From NCBI GenBank assembly GCA_964658305.1, contig OZ210885.1, forward strand, positions 9,052,001-9,116,000: a stretch of 64,000 nucleotides of DNA. Direction: 5' to 3'. This document shows positions 13,701 through 64,000 of the stretch, piece after piece; the first letter of the stretch is position 1; each line of letters opens with the position of its first letter. The translations under genes were made by a program, and so were the position numbers. This DNA comes from Leptogorgia sarmentosa. Its lineage: Eukaryota. The notes beneath the pieces are model-generated. The model was not told where the DNA came from, searched no databases, and saw only the letters and a program-made list of their open reading frames with translations.

Positions 13701-16700
13701 AAAACCTCGCCAATTTACGACAGCTTTAGGACTCGGCAAAGTTATTTTACTGTTCTGAAAATGTATTTTCTACAAAAAGCGCATGATGGTGGGAAAAAGA
13801 AGTTGTGGTGCCTTCGCATCTCGAAATTTGTTCGGTGTATGCCCTGACATAGAAGCTTCTTTTCCGTAGAAAATGTTATTTATCACGACCATTATTAACT
13901 AATGTATAATGAGAAATTTGTTTTAACCTGATCACTCTATTTCTAGCCCATGTTATTCGCAAATATATATTTTAATAAGAACTGCCTTCGCATAGTTTAA
14001 TTTTGAAGGTTTCACCGTCTTATACCAAAAAAAATCCAGCAAGAAAAAAACCCAACTCATTTGGTTGATTTCTTCCAGACATGGTGTGGACAATGGGGAT
14101 TTATTCCAAATTTGCCTCCCAATTTTCAAAATGAAGATTGGGACGAAGTTAATTTGCAATAATTCTAGAAACGCTTCATAATGTGTATGTGCATGTGCTG
14201 TTTTATATCATGAAATTTGAATTGCAGCTCAACCTACAACAAGTAACACGCCCAAAAATAGCATTTGAAAATCTCGTTCGGAAAATGATATACATACCTT
14301 TTTGCCAGAAGCAACTATGATATCATTCCAGCGGGGCACGAATTCTAACGCGGTAATGGGATCCGAACAAATGTTGTCATGTGACAATATTAACGTCGGC
14401 AAGTTTTCTTCAACATTCCAAAGCTTCACAGACCCACCGATAGACCCCGATGCAAAGCGACGTGAACGATCATGACCTCCTACCTCCCCTTTAACTTGAG
14501 AAATGGCATCCTCGTGTGCTGGGAATTTCAACTGCGAGTTATTGTTAAGATGGAACCATAACAGTTCTCCGTCATCACAACCAAGAAATGCATATTGTGA
14601 CCCAAGAGCAGTAATGCAAGTGACTTTAACATCTGGTTGACTCAAATTAATGCTGGTCTCGATATCATTAAGAATTCTTAGTTCGATCCTGTTTACCTCG
14701 TCAACAAAAACGAAACGGACATGATCACTTAATAAGCAGACAAAACGTATGGCGACTCCAGATTCGGTCTTTGCGAACTGAACTATTTTAGAACACTTTA
14801 TGTCGACCAGCGACAATGTTCCCGAACTGCTTCCAGACAGAGCAAATTTCCCATTTGATGTGATGTCAATTGCTGTAACAATCGAGTCGTCAGGGTGACC
14901 TGCATGAAGGAAGTAAAATTTTTATTTGAAGTATTCAAGTATGCGACGCTTCAGCGGTGTAGCCTGCCAATTATTGAAAAATATCGTTCAGACGACAATT
15001 AATCTTCATAGGTGCAGCAATAGAAATTTTCTTCAAATCCGGGTAGTAAAATGCATCGCTGATATCGAAAACGCAAAAATAAGTCATTCACTGTTGTAAA
15101 TAAAAGACTAGTATACTGGAATAAAGGCCGTTTTCCATTACAGTCGTTTTGCCCGCGCGGGCTGAGCTGAGGGTGAACGTAGTTCCACTTCTAAGCTTCT
15201 GCCCGTGCGGGCAAAGCGACTGCAATGGAAAACTGCCGTAAATCACACCAATTTCATCCGAAATTCAATCACTTTCACCTGATAAACGGTACGTACATTG
15301 TACGAACTTTAATTTGAATGGCCATAATATGTTTTTTATTGTTCCCAATCATTGCAGTTATACTAATTAATTTTGACACACTTTTATCCATTGTAGCGAT
15401 GGATTTTTGTTTCTTTACTTATTTTCAAATTTGAAAATTTGACTAGTTAGGCTCGATTTAGGCGTCTAATTTTCAAATTCAAACGATGAGGGAAGTAATC
15501 TCATCTCAATTTGAAAAAGGAAGTTGAAACGAAAGATCTACGAAAGAACGTAGTATAGATCTTTATGTATACACCCTGACCCCATTGACGTTGGCTGATT
15601 TCTACACGGCCGTGTGTCCGAAAATAATTTTACACGGTCGAATAATTTAGAAAACATATTAGAATGTTATTTAAAAAACATAAAAATTTAAGGAGATATA
15701 GGTATCCAAATAGCAACATATTTTGAAAGTTTTAACTACTATAGTTTCAGCGGTTTTACAGCACAACAGTTTTTGAAGTCGTTTTGATTGCGTTTCACTA
15801 AGTACCTTCCTTACTTCACTGCAATAGTCAGTAGTGAATGTACGGACAAACAATAACGTTATATATCAAAATATGTGTATTTTGTTCAAGAAACGCTTCG
15901 ACACGAGGAATAGCAGCGATTCATGCTGTTACCTTTTTTGGAAATAATTTCAGTATTATTTTTCCAACACATTTGCAGGTCAATTGTTACCCGAATTGTT
16001 TTGCATTCATTTTGCATTCCATCAAACTCATAACTGACGGGCGAATAGACCATTGATTTGCGACTGGATCCTGTATTCTTATAAGTATATAGGATGACCC
16101 AGAAGACACAATATAAGCGGCAACGATAAGTAACGTATGTAGTCAGCATAGTTAGTGATTATGCACTAAAAACGACATCTTTCATGTAAATTTTGTGGGC
16201 TTCAAGCGAATATAGAAGAAGACAGGAAACATAACTTGAATTGTCAGTGTTCGATTCGACTATTATTGCGCATTGGACTGGGTTGACTAATTTTTGGAAT
16301 CTCGTAGTTTTGGTATTCTTTCGCTACATGCAACACGACCTAAATAGCGGATACAGGTTTGTAGATACTCGTGACGAAACCGTTTTAATTGTATTTTCCG
16401 TAATCCTTTAATACATAAATTATAATCAGAACAGAAAATAGCCTGTAAAGCTAGCCAAGACAATTTCAGAGCTAACACGTAATCGAATTCAATATTTGAC
16501 TCATTCGCGAGTGAATGCAAAGTAAATTTTCGGGAAAAATATATTCTCATTTAAAACGGATATTTCACACATATAAATTATTGTGTGTATGAATATAGTA
16601 AAAAATCCTGTAGTCGCATCAAAGACTTAAAGTATTTAGAATTTTCAAATAGTCCTTGATTTACTCACCTGCATTATGGTCGATCCAACTATCAGTTGAA

Positions 16701-22700: not shown

Positions 22701-25700
22701 AGACAGACTATTTTGTTCCATGTACGCAGCAGTTCCCAGGTTCCAAACCCTGATACTTCCATCCAGTGACGCTGTCAATACCTTCTTCGCATTGGGAATT
22801 ATTGCAACACCGCTGAAATATTACAAGTTAATTGTTTATTTTCAACAATAATTTTTTCTACCGAAAAATGGCAAAGACGATCTTTGCGAGACTATTGATT
22901 GTTTAAGAAACCCATATTATCAAAATATGCTGTATAATTTATTCATACATGATCAGGGAAATATGTCCTATTCATCAAATGTTAGTGCAAATGGAAACTA
23001 CATCTATGGTCACTGTATCTTTAGCAAAAATCGTTCTATTACTATGTCGACAACAATTAAGAAGATAGATAGATAGATAAAACCTTTATTTACACAAGTA
23101 ATAAAAATTGCTGTTATCAATGGGAGCCCTATATAGACATATTGTGGAGTTCAGTACTGTTGATATCGACGAAAGCAACAATACAAGATGGAGTAATGAT
23201 AGATGTACAACAGGTAAAATAATATTCGATGTCATACGCTCCTGACTAAATTTTAGTCTAAGCAAGGTGAACAAAATCTTTCACCAATTAGTAATACTGC
23301 AAAATTCAATCGCAAAAGGTTGCAAAGTACGGAAAGTCCTTCAAAGTTGACAAATTTGTATACTTTTTATATTTGCGTGAATTAGTAACTAATTTAATTA
23401 TCAGTTTCAGCGCCTGTCAATCTGCAACTTCGCACGGCTATATTTTCCGTATTCAGCATTTTCCGTATTCAACACCTCGGAAGCGGGCGAGTGGGCTGGG
23501 CAGGCTACTGCACCCCCTCCCACCCCCTCCGATAACTTGCCAGAATTTTGCCAACGATCTTTTTGGAAAAATGAAATATATGAAGGAATCTAGACTTCAA
23601 AAGATTTATTTGGTCTCTCCCCAAACGCGGGTAGAAGGTAATCACTAATATGCATTTTCAAGCGCCCAATCGTGAGTTCTTTTCGATGGGCCTTTTATTA
23701 TCCAACTGTTCACAACCAAACATTTAGTTTTTCTAATTTTGATAACATCACAAAATGTCCTTCGTTTATCCCTCATTAAAATCTTTCTAAAGCGCAAGTC
23801 GTCCATTGCAAATAAGCTTAAAGTATGTAGCACGACTATAGCCGGGAGCCAATTAGTATAATGGTGAAATAAATAGAATTTCTTATATGACTGAAAATTA
23901 ACTTCATGTTGCTCGCTATCTTTTCAAGTAATCAAAAACCGATTTCAAGAAGCAGTATACGTCTTAGTCTGACTGGGAAATATTGTGTTAAATGTATACA
24001 ATGGATAAGACAGAATATGGAGCGCCTTAAGCTTAATTAACAGTTATTCTGCGAGCTCGAGTCGTATATGCACTGATAGTCGACGAGGCGCGTAGCGCCG
24101 AGTCGACTATCAGTCATATACGACGAGAGTGAGCAGAATAACTGTTTTATTATGTACACAAGCACTGGACAAAAACAACTTCCAAATTTATTTGTATTTT
24201 ACTTAATAACTGAATATAATTTCAAAGTGTTCTATCGCTTTGAAATCGACATATTTACAAAAACAGTTTTACTTGATAAATACACGGCAAAAAGCACCGA
24301 AAAAACAACAGTTACAGAATTTAAATAGTCGACGTTTCATTTAAACTATAGCTAGTTTTAAATTTCAGCAGTTTTCATCTGTATTTTTCTGCATTTGAAA
24401 TGACAGTGCAACACAAATTTTACAGTTGTAAAATGTCAACAAACAGCAACAAGCGATCCAACTCAGTCAAGCGATGAATATTACAGCGTCGAGTCCGGTT
24501 TTCCAGATTCAAAACTGCACAATAAACATTTACAACTAAACTTCTTGAATTTTATTCTTTTAATCGGTCGCAAAGACGTTTTTAACTGTTGAAAACTTCA
24601 ATTCCGCCTTCGCTCTTTCAGCCATTTTGTTTACATTTCTGTACTAGCAGGATATGAGCTAATATCCTGCTAGTAGAGAACCAATCAGATTGCAGAATAG
24701 CTCATATCCAGTGCTTGTGTATATAATAATGTTATATATTGGGTCTTCGTTGTTGCCTTGCCATATAACGATGCTTTCGAGAAAATAGCGGTAAATTAAA
24801 TAGTTCCTAGAGTGAACCCACCTGATGCCCGCGGAATGACCTTCATAACAGGAAAGGGACTTTCCAGTATGGAAACACCACAACTCCACATTTCCTTCAT
24901 CGTCTCCAAAGATAATATACTTTTTATCACCGCTCACAGCAATACTGGTAACAACAAATCCAACGTCAAGGGTACGAATTTGATACGTTTTTAAATCCCA
25001 AATTTTTATTGTCCCATCGTGTGAACCAGACACGAGCATTGGATTGTTTTTTCCTGAATCTAAACGAGAAACTTTGCACTTTAGTCGAACTGGCACAAAA
25101 AAACAAGGGAAAGCAAAGTACATGATATCCTAAATATATTCAATAACTCGATCGTTGACAGGATAAATTTTTATATATGCGTTCGGCATGTCTAGGCAAT
25201 GGATTCTGCAGTAGTCCATATACAGAGAGTTGATTTTGTTAATACCGTTAGGATATTGAAGAGAAATTTACGCAAAAAAGAAATTCCAATGTGTCAGGAT
25301 AAACTTGAAATACTCAAAATATGGGCGAACCGTCTGGCACGTACAATAGCCATAATCACGAATGAATTGTGCAAAGTAACATCATTCTTCTAGTTAGTTT
25401 TGCATATTATGTTAAAGCTCATTAGCTACCTCTGCAAGGACATTATGTAATCATCTTGGTTTGTTTGTGTGTATGATAAGGGAAGGGATGATTACACAAG
25501 GAAGAGATGATTACATTTTGGTTCAATTCGGCTGAGAATCAAGTAAAACATTTATGAAAAAAAACTTGCGTTGTTTTATTTTTTAAATATGAATGCGTCA
25601 TATGAAGTTAATTGATATTCTGGATGTGTTGTGTGAATTAGTATATTTACGGTACCAAATTTGGGTGAAAATTTATTAAGCCCCCACCATCTACTTAGTC

Positions 25701-28700: not shown

Positions 28701-31700
28701 GTTTTTACAATTTACACTGCGTTTCACTGCGCTCTACACGACGTTTACAGTTAACCGCTGGTTTGAAGATACGCAGTCGCTGGAATCCTCAAACCAGCTG
28801 TTGCAATTATTGTTTGAAATGAACAATTTGTACTTTTGGCGAAGGTTGAGAGGTGCTACTAAAACAGACGTATCTGGTTTTACCCGGAAATCATTTTACT
28901 ACAGCTACGTTATAAACTGCTGTTCCTGGCATCAAACACAAAAAGAATTTAGTGAACATGGTCCAATCACACGATACGATGCCGTTTGTAAATTTCATAA
29001 ACCAACCCTCTATCATAGCTACATTGTTGTCAAATTGTATGCATTGTACAGGGCATCCATACCAGTGGTACTGTTGGTAAAACTTGGTTACAGATCGCGA
29101 AAGTTACATCCGTGAAGCAAGGGCCATGTATGGCAGTTGGGCTTCGTTCAAAATAATGAAAATATACTTTGTTTTCAAATGTAGTCGATTATGTACAACA
29201 GGTTACAGGTACGAGTTCAGATAAAATGGTTGAAATGTACGAAGGATTAACAACGAGCTCTCTTTCTCTCCAACCCGTTTCCGAAAGTTGAAATGCAAAT
29301 TTTTAATTCTTTTTTTTCACTGAGTATATACCGCACGAATAAAGACAAACACCATTGAAATCCTAGTAAAATGATCTTTCGAACTGTGGGTCGCATGTTA
29401 GTTAAACACAACACAAAAAAAAATAAAGATTGATCGTCGGAAACGTAAGGCATTAGCATCTATCTGAGAAAAACAGAGTCCAATATGTTGAAATCCATGT
29501 CGTTATTTCTCCCTGAAGCAGCATATTCATGAAACCTGTGTTATGTTCGTTGTTACGATAAATTTGTATTATATTTTAGTTTGTTACATTGGGTACCCTG
29601 TGCAGGGGTCAGCGGTTATATATATATATGTATATTCGGAAAAGAACAACCGCCATTTTGTTTTGTATTTTTGTATTGCATGATTCAGTGTAATAAAGCC
29701 TTAAATTACTGGCAATCGTTCATATAATTTCTCTACAATTTATTACACTGAATCAATGGATAGAGTTCTTCGACCTGAACGACTAGATATTGATCCAAAC
29801 GACAATTCAGCCGCAAAAGAATGGTTACACTGGGAACGGACTTTCGCTAACTTCCTATCAGTATTGCCACAAGAAGACCTTAATAAGCTCTCTGTTCTCG
29901 CTAACTTCGTCTCACCTTCAATCTTCCAGTACATTGAGGACTGCCGGGAATATGATGAAGCCATTCAAACACTGCAAGCACTTTTTGTAAAGCCCAGAAA
30001 TGAAATCTTTGCTCGTCATGTCCTCGCCACTCGAAGACAACAACCCACTGAAACACTCGATGAATACCTGCAAGCCCTTAAGACCCTTAGCAAGGATTGC
30101 AATTTCAAGAATGTCACAGCCAACCAGTATTGTGAAGAGAGTATAAGGGATGCATTTATTGCAGGTCTACAGTCGAACTTGATACGACAGAGACTGTTGG
30201 AGCACAAAAACCCTTGATCTCAAGACAATGTTTGATCAGGCCAGGGCCTTGGAATCCGCCATGCGTAGTTCGGAGTCGTACACATTACCTCCACAGCCTA
30301 TTAATGCAGCAGTCCCTCCTAGTTCCCAAGCTTGCTCTCCTAGCCCTACAGAATTGCCTGATTCTGTCGGTACCCTAGCTGCAGTAGCATCTGAAGGCCC
30401 CAGTTGTTTCTTTTGTGGAAACAGCAAACATCCTCGTTCAAAGTGTCCTGCTCGTGAAGCTATTTGTCTAAAGTGCCAAAAGAAAGGTCATTTCGCAAAA
30501 GTGTGTCGTGGAAAGCCAGTGCAACCTAAAGATAAAGTGTCAGCTGCGGCTTGGTCACCAACTCTCGCAACCGTGCCAAGCCCTACCTCACTCTCAAAAT
30601 CATTGGCATCTGTGGACATCAATGGATTAAAAGTAAAAGCTCTTATCGACACCGGAAGTACTGAAAGTTTCATTCACCCAAGTCTCGTAGAGAAGGCAGC
30701 GTTAATAGTTCACCCTTCTTCTAGCACGGTATCCATGGCGACCTCCCTATCATCAGCTAAAATAAGTGGGACCTGCACTGTTGATCTTTCATACCAAGAG
30801 CGACGTTATGAAAACCTACATTTGTCTGTACTACCGGGACTTTGTGCTGATTTGATACTTGGTCTTGATTTCCAGACACGACATGAAAGTGTAGTGTTCA
30901 AGTATGGAGGCTCTGAACCTCCACTGTCAGTATGCAGCTTCAGTACCCTTAACATCGACCCACCCCAACCATTCGCAAACCTGATGCCAGAGTGTCATCC
31001 AATCGCCACCAAGTCCAGAAGATACAGCCAGGACGATTCTGAATTCATTGACAAGGAGGTGACAAGGCTCCTTGCAGAAGGTATCATCGAACCAAGCCAC
31101 TCACCCTGGCGAGCTCAAGTCGTCGTCACCAAGGACGATAATCACAAGAAGAGGTTGGCGATTGACTACTCTCAGACTATAAACCGCTTTACCATCCTTG
31201 ACGCCTTTCCATTGCCAAATATAAGTGAAATGGTTAACAAGATTGCCCAATACAGGGTCTTTAGCACGATCGACCTTCGGAGTGCCTACCATCAAGTACC
31301 TTTAAAGGACGAAGACAAGCCCTACACAGCCTTCGAGGCCCGTGGTAACCTCTACCAGTTTACACGTCTACCTTTTGGTGTCACTAACGGCGTCGCTTGT
31401 TTCCAAAGGGAAATGGTCAAGTTTGTAGAAGAGAATCATCTCAAGGCAGTTTTTCCTTATCTAGACAACATCACCATCTGCGGGAAAGATCAGAAAGACC
31501 ACGACGAAAACCTGAAGGAGTTCCTAGAAGCTGCAAAACTTAAGAACATTTGCTACAATGATGAAAAGAGTGTCTTCTCTACCCGTCGCCTACCCTTACT
31601 TGGATATGTCATCGAGGAAGGTAACATCTGCCCCGATCCCGAGCGGCTACGTCCCCTACGTGACCTTCCCATCCCGCACGATTCCAAGTCACTCAACAGA

Positions 31701-34700
31701 TGCATGGGATTGTTTTCCTATTATTCACAGTGGATTCCTGAATACTCGGACCGCATTAAACCTATCACAAGCTGCAAGTCGTTTCCTCTCTCACAGGAGG
31801 CTATTCAAGCATTCCAAAACCTAAAGAAAATGGTAGAAGAGGCCCTCGTGGGTGCCATCGATGAAAGTGTCCCATTTGAGGTCGAGACAGATGCTTCGGA
31901 GGTAGCACTGGCAGCCACTCTTAATCAAAATGGAAAACCAGTAGCCTTCTTTTCACGAACTCTCCAAGGCAGTGAGCTCAAGCACGCATCTGTAGAGAAA
32001 GAGGCCCAAGCCATAATAGAAGCTGTGAGACATTGGAGACATTTCCTAACTGGAAGGTATTTTACGCTAAAGACCGACCAAAAGTCTGTGGCCTACATGT
32101 TTGACCAACGTCACAAAGGAAAGATAAAGAACGACAAGATTATGAGGTGGCGGCTAGAACTGTCCTGTTACAGCTTCGACATCATCTACCGTCCAGGCAA
32201 AGAAAATATTCCTCCTGATACTCTGTCAAGAGCCACTTGTTCTGCTGCAACGGATGAAGATTCCTTGTACAAGCTACATGTGTCGCTGTGTCACCCCGGT
32301 ATCACCCGGCTTCACCATTTTGTACGAACCAAGAACCTTCCTTATTCTTTAGATGACATCAAACGTGTTATAAGTAGATGTTCCGTGTGTTGCGAATGTA
32401 AGCCTCAATACTACAAGCCGGAGAGGGTTCCACTTATCAAAGCCACGCAGCCTTTTGAGAGAATCAACGTTGACTTCAAGGGGCCTCTACCTAGCTGTAA
32501 TGGCAACCGCTATTTTCTCAATGTTATAGACGAGTATTCAAGATTCCCTTTTGTATTTCCTTGCCCAGACGTCTCGACATCTACTGTTATCAAGTGCCTA
32601 ACTTCGCTTTTCTCCCTTTTTGGAATGCCAGCGTATGTACACTCTGATCGGGGAGCATCATTTATGAGCAGCGAGCTCCAAAGTTTTCTGGCAGAGAAAG
32701 GAGTGGCCACAAGCCGTACCACCAGTTACAACCCTCAAGGTAATGGACAGGTTGAGAAGTACAACGGTGTAGTCTGGAAGGGCATCACAATGTCTCTAAA
32801 GTCCAAGAATTTGCCAATCAAGTATTGGCAGGAAGTTCTTCCAGATGTATTGCATTCTATTCGCTCCTTATTGTGCACTGCAACCAATGAGACCCCTCAC
32901 GAGCGTTTATTTGGTTTCTCCCGAAGATCTTCATCTGGCCACTCCATTCCCACATGGCTTGCTACACCCGGTCCGGTTCTACTCAAGCGACATGTTCGTC
33001 AATCCAAGACTGAGCCCTTAGTAGAGGAAGTAGAACTACTACAAGCGAATCCCCACTACGCCCATGTACGCTACCTTGACGGCAGAGAGACCACAGTTGC
33101 AACGAAGCACCTTGCCCCTAAGGGACACGAAGGATCTCCCCAAGCATCTAAGGAAACAGCCTTACCCTTACCTGAGATCCCACCACCTACTACCACTGAG
33201 ACAGAACCTCAACCGCCCGTGGCAAGTGATGTACCACAACCATTGCGACGTTCAGAGCGGGTGCGCCGCCCAGTAGACAGGCTTAACCTTTAAAGGACGG
33301 TGAGAACTTTACTTTGTTAAGTTTGAACGTTCAGAGCGGGTGTGCCACCTAATAGATAGACTTAACTTTTAAAGGACGGGGAGAATGTTACGATAAATTT
33401 GTATTATATTTTAGTTTGTTACATTGGGTACCCTGTGCAGGGGTCAGCGGTTATATATATATATGTATATTCGGAAAAGAACAACCGCCATTTTGTTTTG
33501 TATTTTTGTATTGCATGATTCAGTGTAATAAAGCCTTAAATTACTGGCAATCGTTCATATAATTTCTCTACATTCGTGTTATTTGCACATATAATAACAT
33601 TTCTACAAGCTTTTTTGCAATTGTCAAAAATTTCCGCACGCGCACGGCATTTACTAAAACAGGATAAATCAGGTTGCGCAATAGTCTGAAACACGTGGAA
33701 AACATGCCTTTGATTACGTAGGGTGCGTATTCGTATGTTTTTCAGTCTTGGATAAACTCACTTCTGGTTTATTCGCGCACACGACATAAAAACACGATAG
33801 GTGTCCCAGGAATTTCGCCCCCCCCCCCCCCCCCACCCAGCCAATTATAGTCATTGGGCGAATTCGACTTAAATTAATATGGTGTTGGAGAGAAACAGTA
33901 CTTTTCGTAAGTAATACATTTTTCTAAAATGTATTAACGATTATGCTGCACGAATCTGACGAAATGCTTCTGAATTTCACATATTCGTTACGAAGCACAA
34001 GTTGAATACATACAGTGAATATTAAACTCACTGTGATGACTGCGTCGCTATTTAGAGTGTACTCCCACTCAAATATGGAACGTATTTAAAATAAGAACTG
34101 AAACAATATGCATCAATCCGCTTCATAAACGTTCTTGTATTAAAATGTGAAGCCAATTTTTTTAATAAATAGCGATGTACACAGTGGCGTAACTACTAGG
34201 GGCCCAACCTGGCCGGGGGCCCTGGGAAGAGGTTTCTTCAGGGCCGTGGGTAATGTGAAATTCAAATATTTTTTATTGAAACTGGAGATGCAAAAAAGTT
34301 CGAAGTTAACAAAATGTTTGATATCATTCAGTAGCTAGCTGAAACAATTTTGTTGCCTTTTAAATTGTGCTTGGATGTTGACAGTATATTAATTGTTGTA
34401 TATAATTACAGTCAAACTTTTACTGTTGTTATTGTTTCTGCTTTATAGGAACTTATTTTAGTGTGCTTCTTCTTAACGTTTTTGCCTTTTGGCTATAATT
34501 GAAGCTGCAGAAGAGATGTTAAATAGCTATAATATGTTCGATAATAAATAGCAGAATTAAAATGCATATCATATGCAGAATTCAGGAGAATATTTCGTAG
34601 AGCTAGCATAGTAAAAATGTGAAGCTAAGAAGTATAATTAAGAGGCCATCCACAACAGTTCAACCGAGGGCCGACACTGGAGATTTACGCCGCTGAATTT

Positions 34701-37700
34701 GCAACGTAAAACAAACATTTTGTGAACGTACTTTCAAGTATTTTTATTTGAAGAAAAAATAATTATTTTCATTTAATAACAGTATTCCAATATTCAATTT
34801 GGTACCGGCGGGGTAACATATTTCCGAAAGTATGATTATTTGCGGAGTTATTTGACAAACACAATATGAAAAGGATTTAATTTTTTCTCCAATGGCATCG
34901 TTGCTGGCGTTCCTTCAGAACCGTTAAATCCGTACACGTCAGCAAAATCTTATTTCTTATCGAAACTCGCGCACTTTAATACTAACTTTTAAGCAGAGCG
35001 GAAGTCGAGAAAACGTTTATGCAAATTTTCGTTTACCTATTCTGAACAACATTTTGATATCCTTGTTTGATTTGTGTTTAAGATGCTTACCATGGTATGT
35101 TCCAATAAACACTCGCTGATCATCTGCACTGAAATCCAGAGCATTAACTGTACTCCCCCCTTGGAACACAAAAAGCTGTTCATAATTATCCATTCTCCAA
35201 AGGATTGCACTCCGGTCCGACGACCCTGACGCTAGTATTGTTCCACTTTGTGACACAGCCAAACAGGTAACTGCCACAGAATGTCCCTGTAGTTGTTGAA
35301 CTTCTCTACCTGTTTATAAAATAAGATAGCACATAGATAAAAGGGTGTAATAGGTAATTTTCACTCACATCGTTACTACATTGGGAGTATTGTTCAAAAC
35401 ATTGCGGCGATAAAATAAACTAGGGATCCAAGGATAGTGCAAAGTTTCGAAGGCCTAGGTCGATATAGGCAGTCAACTACGGAGTTTCGCATGTCAGGAG
35501 AATTTGGGACGCTTCCCCCGGAGTTTACACTATGAATGACTGAATGACTACATGACTACATGACTGATGTGAATTTTCGCCACTCATCACAATACTGCAA
35601 AGTTTCTTTGAAACTTTGCACTAATTATTGAGACAAGTAACTACATTAACTAACCCATCAGCTACACTCTGTTTACACCGCTAACTTCCATTTTTACTAT
35701 TACGTCCGTATACCAACTTAAACAGCAATGTAAGCGATAGACAAACACCGAAACGATCTTCAATACTAAAAACAAAATAACTGTAATTTTGCGGAATTTG
35801 CTGTAGCGTGTTTTACAGGCGTGTGTTTTCATTCGTTACTTCTTGGGATTTCATAAAAGTATGCCCTCATCTTTGTTGTGCAAGTCCATAGATATAGGTA
35901 TCGAGCCAACTTGAACGCTTGGGTAAGACTCGCTACCGGTCCCTGTTGCCTCGATAACTAAAGTGGTAGAGTAACGGTCAATGCCGAACAGTTTACTGAA
36001 ACTTATAATATATTTACTAGTGTTTAAAATTTAGTGGCTGATGTTGGTGGTAGAACAGAAAGTAGATAATTGGAAAGCATGCATGAGGCGATAAACCGGA
36101 AATGTTCCATACAGCGAATACCAATGATTGCACAGGAATTTTGTCCTACTTGTATTTGTAATTACTGAACTTTCACATTTAAAATTGGCATATATCCATT
36201 AATTTTAAGCACACGATTTCTTAATAATTGTATGTTTTATTGTTTAGAAGAAATATGTCACTCTGTCCGAATTAGTTTTTATAGTTTGGTTAATATAATG
36301 TTGCTGACAAAAAGCATTTCCCTTGTGCGGTATTCAGGATTTTTCTCTTTTTACGCAGTAAACATTGATTTGTCCAAGCAATGACTGAATTAATTTTGAT
36401 CCCAGCATAAATCTGGATGAACATGTCTCTCCTAGTATCTAAACCAAATTTCAAATATCATCATATGACGACGACTACCGTACATGATTGGCTAATTTTC
36501 GAATGAATTATCAATTACTTTGAGTGTAAACATTTGTTCCTCACCCATATTAACTGCATATAAACAATATTCTCATTTCAATGAATAATCAAGATTATAG
36601 CTTTTGTTTAGCTAAAAAGGCATGACTTGTATGAATATGTTTTAAATAGAGTCATAATATATACGCTATAATTCAATTTTTCTGCTTCCAAAACTAAAAC
36701 TTTTCCCAAAAAACCGGGGCAGTGGCCTACAGGTCTAAAAAATTTGCAAAACTGGAACACGGATAATTTTCGCTCGAAATTTGGTTTTCTCAAGAAATTT
36801 TTACTTAGCTTTGCTTATATTTTGTTGCTGTTGTTGTACATATTCAAGATTAAACCCGCGAACATAGTTTCGATAAGGAGAACTAGGATTCTGCAAGGAA
36901 AAATCTGCAGTACATTTGAGTTGCCCACTCAACAACTCAAATTTCCCTAAGTAGCGTTGAATAAAACATTCTGCTATAATGTGCTATAGCCAGAACTGAG
37001 ACCAACCGATATATACCATATATCAAGCCACATTACCTAGAGTGATGCGAAGCATAATGGGACGAGCCTGAGGCCATTGGGTTCCAGTGAGCTCCCTGAA
37101 ATTATAGCGCCGTAAATTTCTGATGTAATCAAGATAGGTCTACTGCACCAAGTCAAACATGTACTTTATTAAAACCTTTCTATCTATTTAGTTCATTATC
37201 AGCGCTAAAAACAAGAATTAAAGCTGAAGGCTCGCAAAAAGTTATTTGAAAAGAATCATTTGCACAGCAAAGTTTTGTTAATTAAAATGTTACTGCAACG
37301 ATTTTTTCGACCTCATTTTTTTGCGTTAAATAAATACTCAGGTCGAAAGACGAAATTTGGTGTATAGATGACTTTTGTACGTTGACAGGAAGTAGCTAAA
37401 TTTCGCCTCCGAACTTCGATATCGGATGCGAACAGAACAGCCGCCATCTTGTCACCTTGTGACGTCACAAGTGTAACACGTTTAGCGAAACTACTAGTAA
37501 ATTCTGTTACGTTAGAGCTATACTCTGTGTTTCTCGTGCTTTTTTGGCCGGAAAAAAAATCTTTTGAAACAAAACTTGAACATAGGCATTTTAAGACAAT
37601 ATATTTTGCTCATGTCGAGTAACGAGTCTGGCGTAGACCCGCAATCGTGTGAAAGTTCCAGTGAAACTGACCCAGAGTCGGATGGCTCAGTTAACTCGGA

Positions 37701-40700
37701 TTAGTCGGGTGGCTCGTTAGTTCATGTCACATCACACTGCTTTGCGTACGACGTCGAACCTATATATAGCAGAACCTGGGGAAACGAGTTGTGTTCCAGA
37801 AGATCCAGATGGATTGTTGCCAGCAACTATTGAACAAAGAAGCGACGGTAGAATAACTCTGGAACAGTGATAAGAAGATTCAAGACTGTGAAGCCTAATT
37901 AAAATAGCCGACGTATACTAAATTTAAATTTATATTTCATTGCTTTTATTTAATATTCATCTGTAATGATATATTGTTAATTTTGATATCAATATCAATA
38001 TATTGATAACAGTATAATTACTGTTTCCACATTACCGTTTCCACATTCTCATTTTCAATTATTAGATTTGTAAATACTTAAGCTGTGGCAGAATAAATTC
38101 ATTCGATTTGATATGGAAAATTCATAAGAAGTTCATTTACCTTGTCTGTATGCTTAGTATTACAGTAGTTAGGGTTATGAAATTTCATCTACGTTTGCTT
38201 ATACGGTATAAACGTTCAGGTAAATCGTTGCGTTGAAGGTATTTTATTTTGTTTTTCAAACCAGCGCAGGACATGCACGAACTACGAGTTGTAGAAGTTG
38301 TTGTTGTCACATCGGGCATGTCGTCACTGGGCAAGTCAAAGGGTGTATCATCACCAATATTGTGACTTGTCATTGCTATCTCTTCAACTTTCGCTGGAGA
38401 AGACACCAACTTCACTGGCGACAATCTTTTACTCCTGCGAATTACCTTAAAATAAACGAATAATTTAAATATAAAGTGCTTCGCATACTATAAAATTTAC
38501 CATGTGCATGGGCGAAGAATGCGCCTTTGCACGCATGATATAATACTCGTGTTATTTACCTGTAATCGTTTTCGCTCTGTGATCTGCTGTTCGGCAGGTG
38601 GTATAATTACAGCTACATCAATCGTAGGAACAGCATCTTCTTTCAATCTCCTTTTAATATTTAGCGATTTTGCTAATTCTAGATTCATATCATAGCTACG
38701 GATATTCGAAGTGGGCTCAAAAATACCAAGAGGTCGCCGTTGCGTGAAAACCCTGTCTATGTTTACAGACAAATTTCACGCACTTATTCCATCTCTGAGC
38801 ATCTGTTTCTTCTTTAGGGAATAGATGCATAGATATTCCTTCGGTTTTGCTATCATTGGCGCAGCTAACTAAGTTAGGACCGCCAGCAACGCAGAGTTTT
38901 CCTCCGCGAGTAGCTTTACGTCTATTCGGAAATATACGCCATGTTGACAATGTGTTACACTTGTGACATCACACGGCATTAAGATGGTGGTCGAAAAGTT
39001 CGCACGGAAGTAGCCAAAAATCGCAACTTTAAAAGGCCACAAAATCCGTTTGAAAAGAGCAATTTTATTGCGGTGAACATATTCGGAGAGTACAAGTACT
39101 TTCAAGGGCGTCAATCCTGGGGGGGGGATGGGGGGACGCGTCCCCCCCCTTTTTGAAGTGGGGGGGACGAATATCTAATTATCCCCCCCACTTTTTATCA
39201 TGTTTAAAAAAAATTGTTTTTTGGCAATCTTAAAACGCCATGCCTGTATGCTATACATCGTGAATTGTGAAGTACAATCAACAATCTGAGATCAGAAGAA
39301 AACTGAATGACGGAATTATGTTAGTAAAACTCGTCCCCAGAACGCTGAAAATGGTATTTGTGCATGAGGTTTCAAATTTCAAAATTTTTCGGGGAAGCAT
39401 GCCCCCAGACCCTTCTAGAGCGTACCAAGAAAGTGGAGTTAGGACTCTGAAATCGCAGTTTTCGGCAATCCAGAGGTTGTAAAAGTTCAAAAATTTCTCG
39501 CTCGGCGCAAACCATGGTGGCGCCTCGTGACATTCGCTACCCTCAAACTCGGGTAAAGATCTTCCTGCCCCCCCCCCCTGAAAAAATATAGCCCGTACGC
39601 TTATGGTCCCCCCCACTTTTTTGAACGGATTGACGCCCTTGAGTACTTTAAAATATGCCAATAAAAAGGGGTCAAAAATTCGTTGCAGTAACACTGCAAC
39701 TGAAGCGACTCAGTCGTAGTGAGAAGTTATTGATTAACATACATCGTTTGGGCACTTATAATAATGTAGAATAAACAAAAAAATGTTAAGATTTAAATTT
39801 GGAAAATCGAGGGAAACTCATTTTGAGTTGAGAAAACGGAAACTTTGTCGAGTTGTGTATTGCTTTTGAAAGTTTCAAGAACACTGGCTGAGTTTAAACC
39901 CTCAAAAACGTCGCACAAACTTACGTTTTTTAGAATGATTAGCTGTTCGCATGCTTAATTTAGGCTTGCATACCTGTCTCCTGGTCTAAGACGCTGATTG
40001 AACCATTCCTTAAACCACAAATGGCCAGAGTACAGCCTGCAGCATTGGTCGTGGCTAATGAGGATATGGCCGTATCAAACATCTTTCGCGATATCTCAGA
40101 GCCTCCGAGATCCAGACACGAAGATTCCGGCAAAAGATAGCAGGTCTTCGTGCATGTTTCACGGAGTTGCTCTGATATCTTCTGTATCCACGGATACTCT
40201 TGATACGATAGCAGCCTGCCTGAAAAATAAATATACACAACAGTCTTATGATATATCCTCGCAAAATCATAAAATTAGGCCTACATATTATCGTTCTTGC
40301 CTTTGCAACTTATTTTTAACATCGATAATAACTTTTTGATAGAAAAAAGGAAAACTGATAAAACTAGTTATAATTTACATTATATAATAAAATTACGATA
40401 CTATTTTTTTAAAGAGTTTCGATTGGTTAAGAGCTGTGAATGAAATGGTTACATCCGTTCGCCAAAAAACGTATATGACATGTGGACGTAATTTTCTCGT
40501 ATATTGAAAACTCACATACGACATTATTTTCAAAAATCTCGTCTATAATGGGAAATGTCTATTATATTATTGAATTCGGCTCTCGTAGGACATGCAGAAT
40601 TATCAGCTCTTTGCGTCTGCAGATAACACAAATCTCTGCTTCAATAATTGAACATTAATAGTAGACGAATTTTCAAAACCTTTCATTTGTAAACGTCGTC

Positions 40701-43700
40701 GCGATTCAGTGATTTTCACATAATGGCGCCATAGGAAAATTCAGTTTGAGAATCGAGTAGATCTCGTGCGAATATCAAAGTTGGCATTTAAAAAATTCCC
40801 AATATTAGACATACATAAATGGTGTCAGCCCGTTTATTTTCTTATAAGCTAACGAGGAATCTCGAACCGTCGAGTCGCTCTTCTCTGCAATCGATAATAC
40901 CTTTGAAGTATATTTCAACCGCACGATTGTTTCACGGAACTCAATTACATCATTACTGGTTCTATTATATCGCACAACATGAAACTTCGGTCAAGCTTCG
41001 TTAATAGTTTATGGTTGTACAAAGCCAGGTTAAGGTGAAGTGATTAGTGCACTCTTTGCCAGACTTGGGTACATGTTTTCCTTTACCCGAAGATGAGTAC
41101 AGTATGGAATTCCCATGATTACGCCGGGTTTGTTTTTTTATATTCAGTCTGTAACCAAATAATACAGGTTCTGGTTGCGCGTGAAGCAATGTAAGACAAG
41201 ACAAGGGAAGGGAAGGTAAGACAACGCAAGAAGTGTGCAGGTAAGGGAAAATTACGGAGCAAGAAAGGGCAAGAAAGAACATTCCATATCAAGCTGAGGC
41301 ATACAATCCTGGACAAAAGTTGTTGCAAATCCAACTCTTTCCTCCAGAATTCAATGTTGCCACGTGAAATCGCAACAAAACATTGCAGGGCTTAAGCAAA
41401 CACGACGCGAAGTCAGCGAGAACGTGACAATGGCGTGGCATGAGAGATTTTTTACTTCCCGTTTAGACTAGGACGTCGCACATGTTCTGTTGAGGACGGC
41501 ATCTGGGCTGCTTTCACCTCCTCTCCAGAACCTGACATATGAATGCTTGTGTTCAAACATATTTTCCTTGCTAGTTCTGAATTTCATTTTGATTGACAAG
41601 CGTACGTCTAAATAACTCAACGGGTTTTAGCTGCCTTAATTCTTAGCAAACATTTTAATCGCCATAATAAAATGACGAAATTGTATACGTCGTTAATCGG
41701 TTCAATGTTAGTCGTTCTTTACCAAATGCCACATTTTAGAATAGAAAAGTTGGATGAAAACAACCTGACGTTAAAATGAACAAGTAAAAATAGAAATAGG
41801 ATGAATTTGCACCACTTGAACAGAAGAAAACAGATTTCAATCATTTTATTTGCCTTAAAAAACTGTCAATTGATACATATTCAAACACACGACAGAAAAG
41901 TTGGACTTAAATATGGATATTGATTTCGAACAGTTTTATTAAACGGAATGAAGTATTTAATTTGTAAAAATTACTTGCAGATTTGCGATTTCAAAACCGC
42001 GAAAAGACCGATAAAACTGTCTTTTCCAAAGAAACTCAATAAGTGTTACTCAAAAATCTTCAGAAAAATCTTCTAGCTCGCTTTTTGCCTAGTTTATGAC
42101 AGTTTTGCCCAGATCCTAAACCCGAAAAAGAAAAGTCGGGAAAATATTGGGAAACTTCAATATAGAAGATATTTTAACTTCAAATCACTATAGCACGAAT
42201 AAGCGTCGAACCGGGCCCTGAACTATAAAACTGCGACAGACGCATCGCATGATAATGCAAAAGTAAACTAAACTATAGGAAAACTGGATAAAATAAAGTT
42301 CATTATTTTATTACCTAGCAGTTGTGGACAGATTGAATCAGCATTCTTTTCGATAACGTGGGAAGAAAACATTAACGATGATTTGAGGAGTTGGGTTTCC
42401 TGTGACAATGTGCCCAAAAAACGAAAATCTGATACGACGGAGGGTAGGTCAATGTGTTTCACTTTTTGTTGAAGCCAGTTTAAATCGAAGAACAGTTGAA
42501 GTAGCTCGCCATGTTGTTCTGAGGAGGAGATGTGATAGGGTAGGAACTTGAAGTAATAGTCTTTTTGCGCGGTAGTTGAATTTTCATTCCATTTACCGTT
42601 CACGCATTGGCCACGAAGTGTCTCCACAAACAAACGCTGAACACCAGTTAGTGAGCCCGTGACTTTAAGTTTTCTCCGAGCAAAATCCAGCAGTAAATCA
42701 TGCACAAGGTAGCTTGTCTTCTTATGAAGTTGAGGTCCTGAAAAAAAGATTTTTGGGACGTCAAGCATCAATCAGTTACTGACATTGGTGCATTGACAAA
42801 CGATATCCAACGGGCAGTAGATTTTCGTTTCTCTAAAACTGACTAATAAATAGTAATACAAAGATAAAAACTGTTTTGCAAGTTGACTTCTGACTTAAAG
42901 GACAGTTATTCAATGCACGACTTGCGGTTTAAAGTAATTTTAATGTGAGGATTTACTAAAACATGGCTTTCACATAACTTCCTTAAATTAAAACTCGCTC
43001 GTGTACCTTTTTGAATCATGGATTTTCTTTCAAGAGAATCAAGTATACGTCTTGTTTTGATAGGTTCACACAATGTTCTACCGGCTCCTTCTGTGGACCA
43101 AAACAGCTCCAGTACATCTGAAGGTATATTTGTATCTTCTGGAAATATACCAAAATCTAGGAACTTTTCTTGTTCCGATTGTTCTAAGCGTTCAAAGCTA
43201 ATATTAATGGCTGTAACGATGTTATCATAAGGATAATCGTCGGTGGCAACCATTAAATGAAGTTCTTCCAAATCAGTAGTAAATCCATCTAAAATATCTT
43301 GCCAAGCCTGTTCCGACCGATTGCCGTTTAAATTTGAGCCAACAAGTGAGAGTGCCAGCGGCAGGCCTTTGCACTGTTTCAACAGTTCTTCAATAATTTC
43401 CTGCATTTTTGGACTAAAGGTAGGCAGTTCATCTTGCTTAATCCCAGCACTTTCAAAAAAGAGCTCTCGAGATTTATCCTGTTCCATTATATCAAGTTCG
43501 TAGACAAAACCTCTTGAACCTCGGACAACATTGACATCCCTGGTAGTTATCAATAACTGACATTTTTCAGACAAAGTATCAAACACAGCAACGTCGTTAA
43601 CATTCCAAACATCATCAAGAACTACAAGACATTCTTTACCGCTCTGCAATAGATAGAAAAATATTACATGTAAGATACTGTATGGTCTTTTTGCTGAGTG

Positions 43701-46700
43701 TCTTCACAGTAGACAGCCTGGAAATGACTTCACCGCAGTACGACTATACCTTTCAGCTTATTAAAACTTTAGAGAGTGTTTAAGGGGCGCGCCACGTACA
43801 TTATTAACTCCTATGCAAATCCGATTAAAGATATATTAAATAGTGCTTTTAATTCAAGGGTTACATAGCGGAGCCAAGAACCTCGAACAGCCAAGCGAAA
43901 CAAGGATTAAATACAGGGCGTGTCAAAAAAAATTTAGTGTAGGAAATATTCCTTAAAGTGTTACTGCAACGAATTTTTCGACCTCGTTTTTTTTGCCTTA
44001 AATAAATATTCAGGTCGAAAGATGAAATTTGGTGTATAGATGACTTTTGTACGTTCAGTGGAAGTAACTAAATTTCGCCTCCAAACTTCGATACCGGATG
44101 CGACAAAAACAGCCGCCATTTTGTCACCTTGTGACGTCACAAGTGTAACACGTTTAGCGAAGCTACTAGTAAATTGTATTGCGTTAGAGCTATACTCTGT
44201 GTTTCTCGCGCTTTTTTGGCCGGAAAAAAATATCTTTTGAAACAAAACTTGACCATAGGCATTTTAAGACAATATATTTTGCTCATGTCGAGTAACGAGT
44301 CTGGCGGAGACCCGCAATCGTGTGAAAGTTCAAGTGAAACTGCATGACCCGGTGTCGGATGGCTGGTTAATTCATGTCACATCGCACTGCTTTGCGTACG
44401 ACGATGAACCTATAGCAGAACCTGGGGAAACGAATTGTGTTCCAGAAGATCCAGATGGATTGTTGCCAGCAACTATTGAACAAAGAAGCGACGGTAGAAT
44501 AACTCTGGAACAGTGATAAGTGAAGGTTCAAGACTGTTTAGACTTTAGCCTAATTAAAATAGCCGACGTAGGCTAAATTTGAATGTATATTTTTTTGCTT
44601 TTATTTAATATTCATCTGTAATGATATATTGTTAATTTTGGTATCAATATATTGATATCAGTATAATTATTGATTCCACATTGCCGTCTCAATATCTCAG
44701 AACAAGTGTGTATGTAAAAGAGCCCAATTTTATAGGCCCTTTCTTTTGGGCTTCCTTGCCTTCTATTTATTAAATTTGTAAATACTTAAGCTGTGGCAGA
44801 ATAAATTGATTTGATTTGATAAGGCAACTAGTCACAATTCATAGCAAGTTAATACTTAGCGATTTTGCTAACTCTAGATTCATATCATAGTACGAATCTT
44901 CGAAGTGAAGGCACGAGGTCGCCGTAGCGTCAAAACCCGGGTTATGTTTACAGACAAATTTCACGCACTTATTCCGTCTCTGAGCATCTGTTTCTTCATT
45001 AGGGAATAGATGCATAGATACTCCTTTAGTTTTGCTATCATTGACGCAGCTAACTAAGTTAGGACCGCCAGCAACGCAGAGTTTTCCTCCGCGAGTAGCT
45101 TTACGTCTATTAGAAATATACGCCATGTTGACAATGTGTTACACTTGTGACGTCACACGGCATTAATATGGCGGTCGAAAATGTCGCACGGAAGTTGCCA
45201 AAAATCGCAACTTTGAAAGGCCATAAAATCCGTTTGAAAAGAGCAATTTTAATTCTGTTTGCGGTAAACATATTCGGAGAGTAAGTACTTTAAAATAAGC
45301 CAATAAAAAAGGGGTCGAAAAATTCGTTGCAGTAACACTTTAAACTAACGTGCGTTAACGAAATCTGTGAAAACGTTCAGTTAACCTATGCAGTTAACCT
45401 ATTCAGGTACATCTCGCACTGAGTTTATTTAAAAAATTTATCTTTCTTTTTTAGAGTAGGAAATGTGTTGCTGGAGAGCATTTTGAAAATAACTTGGGCA
45501 CAAAAACTAAGTTCTTCTCACGAATTTTGAGTCAATCGACTCAAAATATGGAGCATGTTGTACAAGTTATTAAAGTGTTGTGGAATTTGCTGCCCGCAGT
45601 GTTGTCACTGCGAGAACTGGATTTTGCGCTGCTTCCTGCGTGATTACCCATTAATTTAATGCATAATTGGATATTCCATTAATTTTCAATGCGAATTCCA
45701 AGGCCTTAACTACACGAATAAATTGCGTTAAATCCAGATTTCGGACATCGTGCGTTCGCCTCAGCGAGTGCGTAAGTTACAAACCTCAACGAATGTGCAT
45801 AAGTTACAAACCCATGGACAACCCAGTGGCCTCCAAGACAAGTTACGGGTAAAGTGATACCATTTTATTTAAACAACATGTAGCTAGGTACCTTTTAATA
45901 ATAATCTAAATAATATGGTAATGCTTTAACCTTAAGCCCATTTTCCACTCCATTATTTCGCCACAGCCGGCGAAAAAAAATGACAAGGATATGATGTTTT
46001 ATATTCATTTGCCACTGAAGAAATTTGTTCCACTTCTGTAGTTGTTGAAAATGTTCACTGTTGGCGCGAAAGAACGAGGAATTACTGAGATTTGTCGGTG
46101 GCAAAATTATTCGCCGGCGGCGGCCAAATACGCGAGTGGAAAACGGGCTTTACGCGAGCTTGTCCAGGAAGAATAAAAATAAGGCTTGTTTGTGGAAATT
46201 CGTTTCGAACACAAAAAATTCGAATGCATACATACTGTGTTCTTTTTAATCCAATCTTGTGCTTCACGGATAACACTGAAAGGTTTTGCTCCACCAAGAA
46301 CTTTTACTAAGATGTTAATCAGTGCTAAACAGTCAGGAGTTTCACCAACATCAAGCCATATAACTTGACGTGAAACTGAAACTTCCCATGCGACAGCCAG
46401 AGCTAAGATGGTCTTACCCAGACCCCCCATACCACGGATACCAACGACGTCACCGCTGCGACTTCCCACCACACCGACTTTACTATTTCCCTCCGCAAGC
46501 AACTTCAATATCTCGTTCACTTCTGATGGTCTTCTCACCATGTCACGAGGTAGACTGCGTAAACCATACCAGCCTAAGGTAGGAAATAAACGAGTTATGC
46601 TGGAGTACAATTGAACTCAAAAAATGTATAATAAATGCATGGAGATCATTCATTCAAAATATATCTCTTCACAAGTTTTTAAACAGTTCAACATGACTTG

Positions 46701-63683: not shown

Positions 63684-64000
63684 GGGCTATCTGTAAAACC
63701 CGGAACGGGGAATCAGGGAACGGAACGAGGAACGGAACGAGGAAGAGGAAAACCCGGAACATGAAAAGCCGGAATCTGTAAAACCCGGAACATGAAAAGC
63801 CGGAATCTGTAAAACCCGGAACATGAAAAGCCGGAATCTGTAAAACCCGGAACATGAAAAGCCGGAATCTGTAAAACCCGGAACGAGAAAAGCCGGTATC
63901 TGTAAAACCCGGAACATGAAAAGCCGGAATCTGTAAAACCCGGAACATGAAAAGCCGGCTTTTCATGTTCCGGGTTTTACAGATTCCGGCTTTTCTCGTT
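63684..64000. repeat. Foldback element built from a 31-bp minisatellite (runs off the window end)
   Basis: Unit aaaacccggaacatgaaaagccggaatctgt, about 6.5 copies, then inverted about 63956/63957. Starts TTA|GGGCTA (Harbinger-like end). Confidence 0.8.

Follow-up and report, generated by a model that had tools for sequence, protein, structure and literature searches.

For animal LTR elements outside the sushi group, the general view is that reverse transcription is primed by a tRNA. The window analysed here, a whole stretch of 64,000 nucleotides from Leptogorgia sarmentosa (contig OZ210885.1), contains a compact Ty3/gypsy retrotransposon of 4,022 bp (29551-33572) that has no tRNA-type primer site behind its 5′ LTR, which raises the question of what primes its reverse transcription. 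A preliminary description of the sequence had proposed that a piece of the element's own RNA does so. The parts of the element are the following:

29546-29550: left copy of the 5-bp target-site duplication (TSD), TTCGT
29551-29737, plus strand: 5′ LTR, TG...CA, 187 nt, 100% identical to the 3′ LTR
29681-29697, plus strand: LTR arm complementary to the site behind the LTR, 17 nt in the window copy, with AATAAA at its end
29685-29697, plus strand: 13-nt core of the arm, which pairs throughout the clade of relatives; putative self-primer (11-14 nt) with its probable 3′ end at 29697
29698-29713, plus strand: hairpin directly 3′ of the arm, GCC...GGC in the window copy
29738, plus strand: 1-nt spacer (A) between the CA end of the LTR and the primer site
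29739-29755 (core 29739-29751), plus strand: primer-binding-site position, complementary to the arm, without TGG
29756-30217, plus strand: gag, first ORF, 153 aa, Retrotrans_gag, with the frame broken near its end
30228-33293, plus strand: remaining gag-pol, with two CCHC knuckles, protease, RT, RNase H and integrase, and no chromodomain
31458-31469, plus strand: RT catalytic motif YLDN in place of YxDD, common to most close relatives
33368-33385, plus strand: polypurine tract ending ...GGGGAGAA, adjoining the 3′ LTR
33386-33572, plus strand: 3′ LTR, 187 nt, with a second copy of the arm (33516-33532) and of the hairpin, and no adjacent partner site
33573-33577: right copy of the 5-bp TSD, TTCGT

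The TG...CA LTRs, the target duplication and the polypurine tract are Ty3/gypsy features, as is the domain order gag-protease-RT-RNase H-integrase. Among solved structures, the RT was closest to that of Ty3 (PDB match, E 4.6e-59), and the acidic residues of the RNase H were present. Although the LTRs are identical, the gag-pol frame of the window copy was broken at 30200-30230, giving two ORFs, whereas many relatives had a single ORF of about 1,150-1,250 aa. The last codons of the ORF and the polypurine tract were duplicated in tandem (33248-33391, 79 nt, 85% identical), which produced two tract-like stretches, and the joint was also present in contigs of runs X4 and X10. Upstream of the arm lies CCGCCATTTT (29650-29659), which we take to resemble a YY1 site; a similar motif occurred in 5 of the 34 self-pairing families described below. 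A TATA box (TATATA or TATAAA) was found in only 5 of these families, at no fixed distance.

Exon-like frames on the minus strand of the window (14229-14921, 24659-25129 and 42268-46616) flank the element on both sides. Their look is presumably WD40-like and NB-ARC-like, resembling APAF1, and the element may lie inside an intron of an APAF1-like gene. Long inverted repeats, two-copy MITE-like elements and a 31-nt tandem array that terminates in a palindrome were observed at 5404-6184, 37288-39693, 43953-45343 and 63718-64000.

The two stretches on which the proposal was based, 29681-29697 (TGATTCAGTGTAATAAA) and 29739-29755 (TTTATTACACTGAATCA), are perfect reverse complements separated by 41 nt. 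The second fills, with the 1-nt spacer, the gap of 18 nt (29738-29755) between the LTR and the gag ATG at 29756, and no TGG was found after the 5′ LTR. Both observations of the preliminary description, the 17-nt self-complementarity and the short gap without a TGG-type site, were thus borne out. When the LTR plus leader (205 nt) was shuffled with its dinucleotides preserved, no perfect inverted repeat exceeded 13 nt, against the 17 nt observed (0/2,000 shuffles reached even 14 nt). The RNA fold of 29681-29760 had a free energy of -22.2 kcal/mol (z = -5.9), equalled by 0/200 shuffles; begun at 29687, the fold had -11.1 kcal/mol (z = -1.6), equalled by 14/200. Within the window, the 11-nt core of the arm was present in both LTRs and at the site and nowhere else.

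Relatives were collected by a gag alignment search, from which we kept the best 80 of 172 metagenome loci and 3 of 5 loci from genome contigs; L084 was set aside because it lacks a gag start, and L085 because of its E value, 4e-4. Clustering these 83 loci and the window at 90% gag identity gave 39 families. CA-A-T(T/C) served as the anchor for the LTR end, and the best 11-position register was sought up to 150 nt upstream, the registers of L015 and L048 being fixed in a second step. Each family was represented by its best-pairing copy over positions 1-11, with G·U counted half, a choice that raises the pairing counts at these positions and lowers G·U; positions 12 onward played no part in picking the register. 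The named sources of relatives were corals, anemones, an octocoral, crustaceans and a crinoid. The element was also present on contigs filed in bacterial MAGs (L081-L083), where the DNA is probably animal and carried into bacterial bins. Three scans of viral contigs revealed no relatives.

At least 9 of the 11 positions paired in 34 of the 39 families. Four of the other five had no LTR end or arm upstream of gag (L028/L029, L035, L068 and L080), and the fifth (L044) paired imperfectly, with a score of 8.5. Counted from the arm's 3′ end, Watson-Crick pairs at positions 1-13 were present in 33, 34, 34, 33, 34, 33, 34, 33, 34, 29, 34, 29 and 31 of the 34 families; at positions 14-16 they dropped to 24, 17 and 17, and position 17 was at background (10/33). 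Of 442 cells, 96.6% were paired; the corresponding values were 68.3% for 500 shuffles and 28-46% for the slid controls. Cells changed on both sides numbered 104, against 24 in shuffles. The compensatory changes that the preliminary description had proposed to look for among related families are thus present, 11 of the 13 pairs changing on both sides. RNAalifold gave the same 13 pairs, a result that is not independent because the segments were cut on the chosen register. The gag tree requires a minimum of 78 double changes in arm and site.

The site also tracks the LTR of its own family. It matched this LTR at 12 or more of 13 positions in 27 of 34 families, against 19 of 1,122 trials with the LTR of a foreign family, and 32 different 13-mers occupied the site among the 34 families (mean difference 5 of 13 positions). 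A TGG-initiated site, as in tRNA-primed LTR elements, was found in 0/34 families. The spacer from CA to the site was exactly one A in 14 of 15 copies from four families, in which the LTR end was fixed independently by the 3′ LTR and the target duplication; two of these copies share their target duplication and may be one insertion. Some copies pair over 17-19 nt. We observed in L048 (375-472) a degenerate second LTR end and primer site, 72 nt downstream of the first and before the ATG. The window also carries a young BEL/Pao-type element (47447-54019, minus strand) with 211-nt LTRs, 99% identical, and an ordinary TGG-type primer site 4 nt after the LTR; taken as a control, this site had a complement of only 6 nt to its own LTR. 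From these sequences, we conclude that the duplex is a clade-wide trait, a statement that covers the gag-near part of the clade since the deep branches have no DNA in the sample.

The pattern of change within the duplex is informative as to how site and arm stay matched. G·U accounted for 2 of 427 duplex pairs against 20 of 129 pairs of the adjacent hairpin, a comparison biased by the register search, which counted G·U half. One copy, L040 (4921-5003), is 99% identical to its family and differs from L034 at 5 positions in 238 nt; two of these differences form one complementary pair, with the new letter in both its LTRs, and nine other copies of the family have the old letter. By a hand estimate, such a double change would arise by chance with a probability of about 0.002. 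The sister family of the window element has T29691G together with A29745C; contigs from three studies show this, and one of them covers both positions. It also has G29750A with its partner 29686 unchanged, so that this pair is broken. In L021 (4918-5000 and its 3′ LTR), both LTR arms had changed and the site had not. This is the state expected one round earlier, as progeny LTRs would take this stretch from the 3′ LTR of the parent, and L021 and L040 may possibly be successive stages of one process. Few G·U pairs and single double changes in near-identical copies would be expected of an arm that acts as the primer and whose sequence returns to the site by copying. Such copying is not universal in Gypsy: passages of PMC5371799 indicate that Ty3 does not restore its site from the primer.

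The two ends of the duplex were not alike. The 3′ end of the arm was sharp, since in 33 of 34 families the base that follows cannot form a pair with the spacer A; the 5′ end of the duplex was ragged and pairing faded gradually to position 16. Judging from this pattern, the conserved duplex is about 13 nt long, not 11 or 17. The preliminary description had assumed the exact Tf1 geometry, with a start at 29687 and an 11-nt primer. This is partly upheld by the sister family, in which the break falls at position 12 and the compensation inside, and by the G at position 10 kept in 28 of 34 families, but pairing continues at position 12 (29 of 34 families) and at position 13 (31 of 34), with four pair types at either one, and both positions covary clade-wide. 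A pyrimidine-purine start was present at positions 10, 11 and 12 in 12, 13 and 12 of 34 families, at position 13 in 4 and at position 14 in 1. A purely 5′-terminal primer would thus explain the length incompletely, as pairing extends to 13-14, where such a start is rare. The pyrimidine-purine rule was not decisive for placing the start, three-position windows elsewhere also scoring 31-34 of 34. In raw RNA runs X23 and X24, we found 15 and 6 reads with no pile of starts, numbers that have no bearing on expression. Either variation in the start site or release of the primer from a longer RNA could account for the ragged 5′ end.

Directly after the arm, the clade exhibited a hairpin of the form RCC...GGY, with R-C-Y after the arm and R-G-Y downstream in 31 of 34 families and C-G as the second pair in all 34. 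The stem had at least 4 bp in 28 families and fewer in 6 (3 bp in the window copy). The summed stem length was 150, against 113.8 +/- 5.8 (maximum 128) in 300 shuffles that kept the first bases. The closing pair, which was not used in choosing the hairpin, was G·U in 11 cases, A-U in 9, G-C in 3 and never A·C, which favours a hairpin in the sense RNA. When the start of the hairpin was slid, stem lengths were alike at offsets 3-7, so that the hairpin is supported by the comparison with shuffles and by its invariant C-G pairs. In the Tf1 pretzel, both flanks of the primer site also pair, with LTR sequence downstream of the primer; in the clade, these two helices did not rise above shuffles: for the 5′ flank we obtained 113, 107 and 104 against 107, 101 and 105, and for the 3′ flank 120-138 against 123-135, in each case below the shuffle maximum.

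A poly(A)-signal-like hexamer usually stands at the end of the arm; its 5′ LTR copy would be base-paired and its 3′ LTR copy would stay unpaired. The preliminary description had suggested that the duplex hides the AATAAA of the 5′ LTR. This may hold for some families and is not general: AATAAA closes the arm in 6 of 34 families and ATTAAA in 11, and only the final three bases are fixed, being AAA almost without exception. One of the 12 poly(A)-signal variants scored was present in the arm of 22 of 34 families. Families that had lost the hexamer possessed a downstream replacement no more often than the others (3/17 without the hexamer against 2/17 with it, p = 1), and loop lengths did not differ (p = 0.11). 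The hexamer may play a role in polyadenylation. Control of gag translation by the duplex, also suggested for the window copy, found no support, since the distance from the start of the site to the ATG varies from 15 to 97 nt, so that the duplex reaches the start codon in some families and not in others.

Taken together, the covariation in 34 of 39 families and the lack of a TGG site strongly support the self-priming first proposed, and these sequence patterns make it very probable that the element is self-primed in some form. By analogy with Tf1, the primer would probably be the 5′-terminal piece of the element's own RNA, and the element likely works like Tf1. The arm might also act as primer without being the capped 5′ end of the same molecule, coming from a longer leader, from the 3′ LTR copy at the far end of the RNA, from a second packaged RNA or from a small RNA. 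All the covariation evidence fits this equally well; in addition, pairing passes the likeliest initiator positions and fades only at 16, reaching 17-19 nt in some copies, and the 3′ LTR bears the same arm and hairpin. We nevertheless consider it unlikely, though deserving some weight, because pairing does end, with background from position 17, because active-looking sister families differ at positions 12 and 14, because the conserved G at position 10 and the pyrimidines upstream resemble an initiator motif, and because Tf1 is a tested precedent for the 5′-terminal form.

The duplex might rather be a regulatory RNA helix, serving poly(A) hiding, gag translation or packaging, with another molecule as primer. 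The presence of AATAAA or ATTAAA in the arm of 17 of 34 families (one of the 12 variants in 22), the partner found only at the 5′ LTR and the helix abutting the ATG in the window copy agree with such a function, which is nevertheless improbable as the main explanation: the partner always starts 1 nt past the LTR, at the place required of a minus-strand primer, with no other primer site there, G·U is nearly absent, unlike in the neighbouring hairpin, and neither the variable distance to the ATG nor the lack of a replacement signal would be expected. A host tRNA half or other host RNA, the LTR match being incidental, is very improbable. Half-tRNA priming without TGG has a precedent, described in a section of PMC6317226, but a conserved host RNA cannot match all 32 sequences found at the site among the 34 families, every one of which follows its own LTR, nor can it follow the change seen in the single copy L040. 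ARAGORN found no tRNA genes in the window or in the 42 of 85 loci scanned. Finally, the region is A+T-rich, as chance pairing would suppose, but chance or an assembly artefact was refuted by the shuffles and by the recurrence of the arrangement in independent assemblies.

Under 5′-terminal self-priming on the Tf1 model, transcription would begin 11-14 nt upstream of 29697, either at the arm or immediately before it, and the 5′ end of the RNA would fold onto the site behind the LTR. The RNA would be cut between the last A of the arm and the hairpin, probably by the RNase H of the element, the hairpin being predicted to stack on the primer helix at the presumed cut site, and the freed 3′ OH would be extended across the 1-nt spacer into U5. 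The pattern of change further suggests that, during plus-strand synthesis, the primer is copied back into its site, which would explain why the site follows the LTR letter for letter.

We then placed the clade by its RT-RNase H sequence. The relatives formed one group with 38-83% identity, every outside row being at 33% or less, and the clade obtained 100/100 support in a 53-row tree whose rows include no named Tf1, sushi, Mag, SURL, CFG1, Gulliver or MolGy sequences. In the best tree, seven chromovirus-like rows (including an alga with a Pfam chromodomain, Chara, a plant and a frog) formed a 100/98 group, with the clade outside, on a long branch beside a 12-row group that presumably carries Mag-like motifs. 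AU tests rejected neither the clade as sister to the chromovirus-like group (p = 0.216) nor its joining the frog row (p = 0.093). The lack of a chromodomain, noted in the preliminary description, was confirmed in the two ORFs of the window copy, and neither a chromodomain (at E 0.05) nor a Tf2-type SH3 domain was found in 23 full-length relatives (0/23); the same domain library detects a chromodomain in outgroup P0177. The clade lacks, as far as its sequences go, two features that define Tf1/sushi membership, the chromodomain and the pretzel. An origin separate from Tf1/sushi is favoured, though not significantly (AU p 0.09-0.22).

The RT motif adds a further character of the clade. Asparagine in the motif (YxDN) was present in 34 of 73 in-clade rows and in 0 of 100 outside, in all 14 self-pairing families with a readable RT (19 being unreadable) and in 29 of 40 full-length ORFs. 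Both Asn codons were used, and at least 9 D/N changes occurred on the tree, whose deep in-clade branches (P0219, P0238, P0161 and P0159) bear YxDD. A search for residues co-varying with YxDN returned clade-correlated columns only, none of them interpretable.

These results can be assembled into a wider picture, which we put forward tentatively, as plausible but short of probable: a large and old lineage of compact animal Gypsy elements would have invented self-priming independently of Tf1/sushi, with a primer that also serves as the poly(A)-signal region. In this picture, the primer would be cut where a 13-bp helix meets a stacked hairpin and returned to its site by copying in each cycle, leaving primer and site free to drift together, and the RT would bear the motif YxDN. 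If true, self-priming would be common and would probably have arisen more than once in Gypsy, and a widespread clade without tRNA priming would exist in corals, anemones, crustaceans and echinoderms. This clade would escape control by tRNA fragments and go unnoticed by annotation tools built around a mandatory tRNA site. It would also offer dozens of natural variants for the recognition of an RNA-RNA duplex by RNase H and for primer removal and copying, and the natural YxDN of young Gypsy copies would make the role of the third RT aspartate testable.

The closest known systems are Tf1/Tf2 of Schizosaccharomyces pombe, Tj1 and the Tf1/sushi and Tcn1 chromoviruses, which have the same Ty3/gypsy domain order. 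Passages of PMC7175516 and PMC4600332 describe how the first 11 nt of Tf1 pair at the site, with RNase H cutting between 11 and 12. In the portions of these and of further papers that deal with priming (PMC7175516; PMC4600332; PMC5341516; PMC5443660; PMC6934838; PMC5445492), self-priming is shown for Tf1 and inferred for Tf1/sushi and Tcn1. As in our clade, the site right after the 5′ LTR of Tf1/sushi and Tcn1 elements complements a stretch of the LTR and there is no tRNA site. Unlike Tf1/sushi, the clade has no chromodomain or SH3 domain, two CCHC knuckles, a length of about 4.0-4.4 kb, a duplex of about 13 nt, an arm ending in a poly(A)-signal-like hexamer and a YxDN RT, and it lies outside the chromovirus-like group in the best tree. 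Tf1 has a three-helix pretzel, as a passage of PMC10085805 describes, whereas the clade has a local hairpin after the arm instead.

The plant Ty1/copia elements TAR, Houba and Osr-1 share with the clade an LTR-complementary site outside chromoviruses, self-priming being given as predicted only in the relevant section of PMC6317226. They differ from it by their superfamily (Copia) and their plant hosts. Predicted self-priming in these copia elements too suggests that the trait arose more than once. Mag elements have a double CCHC knuckle in gag and a single ORF, and two CCHC knuckles are likewise present in the clade. The Mag lineage (A, B and C clades) and the unnamed MolGy clades also resemble it in their marine invertebrate hosts and in their short LTRs with a clear AATAAA, the LTR traits being reported in part of PMC3601003. 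The main text of the two surveys defining the MolGy/PolGy clades contains no 'PBS', 'tRNA' or 'self-prim', and our clade may be one of these. The open literature, which bounded our search (subscription papers and Repbase being outside its scope), yielded no account of self-priming in a non-chromovirus animal Gypsy clade. Repbase notes reportedly mention self-priming for some families.

As for YxDN, nematode BEL/Pao elements carry YVDN according to a part of bioRxiv 2021.11.23.469668, and here the asparagine is found in a Gypsy clade. In Ty1, the substitution D211N lowers the polymerisation rate 223-fold and blocks transposition, as stated in a passage of PMC2148107. The same asparagine that cripples Ty1 is thus carried by young copies of the clade.
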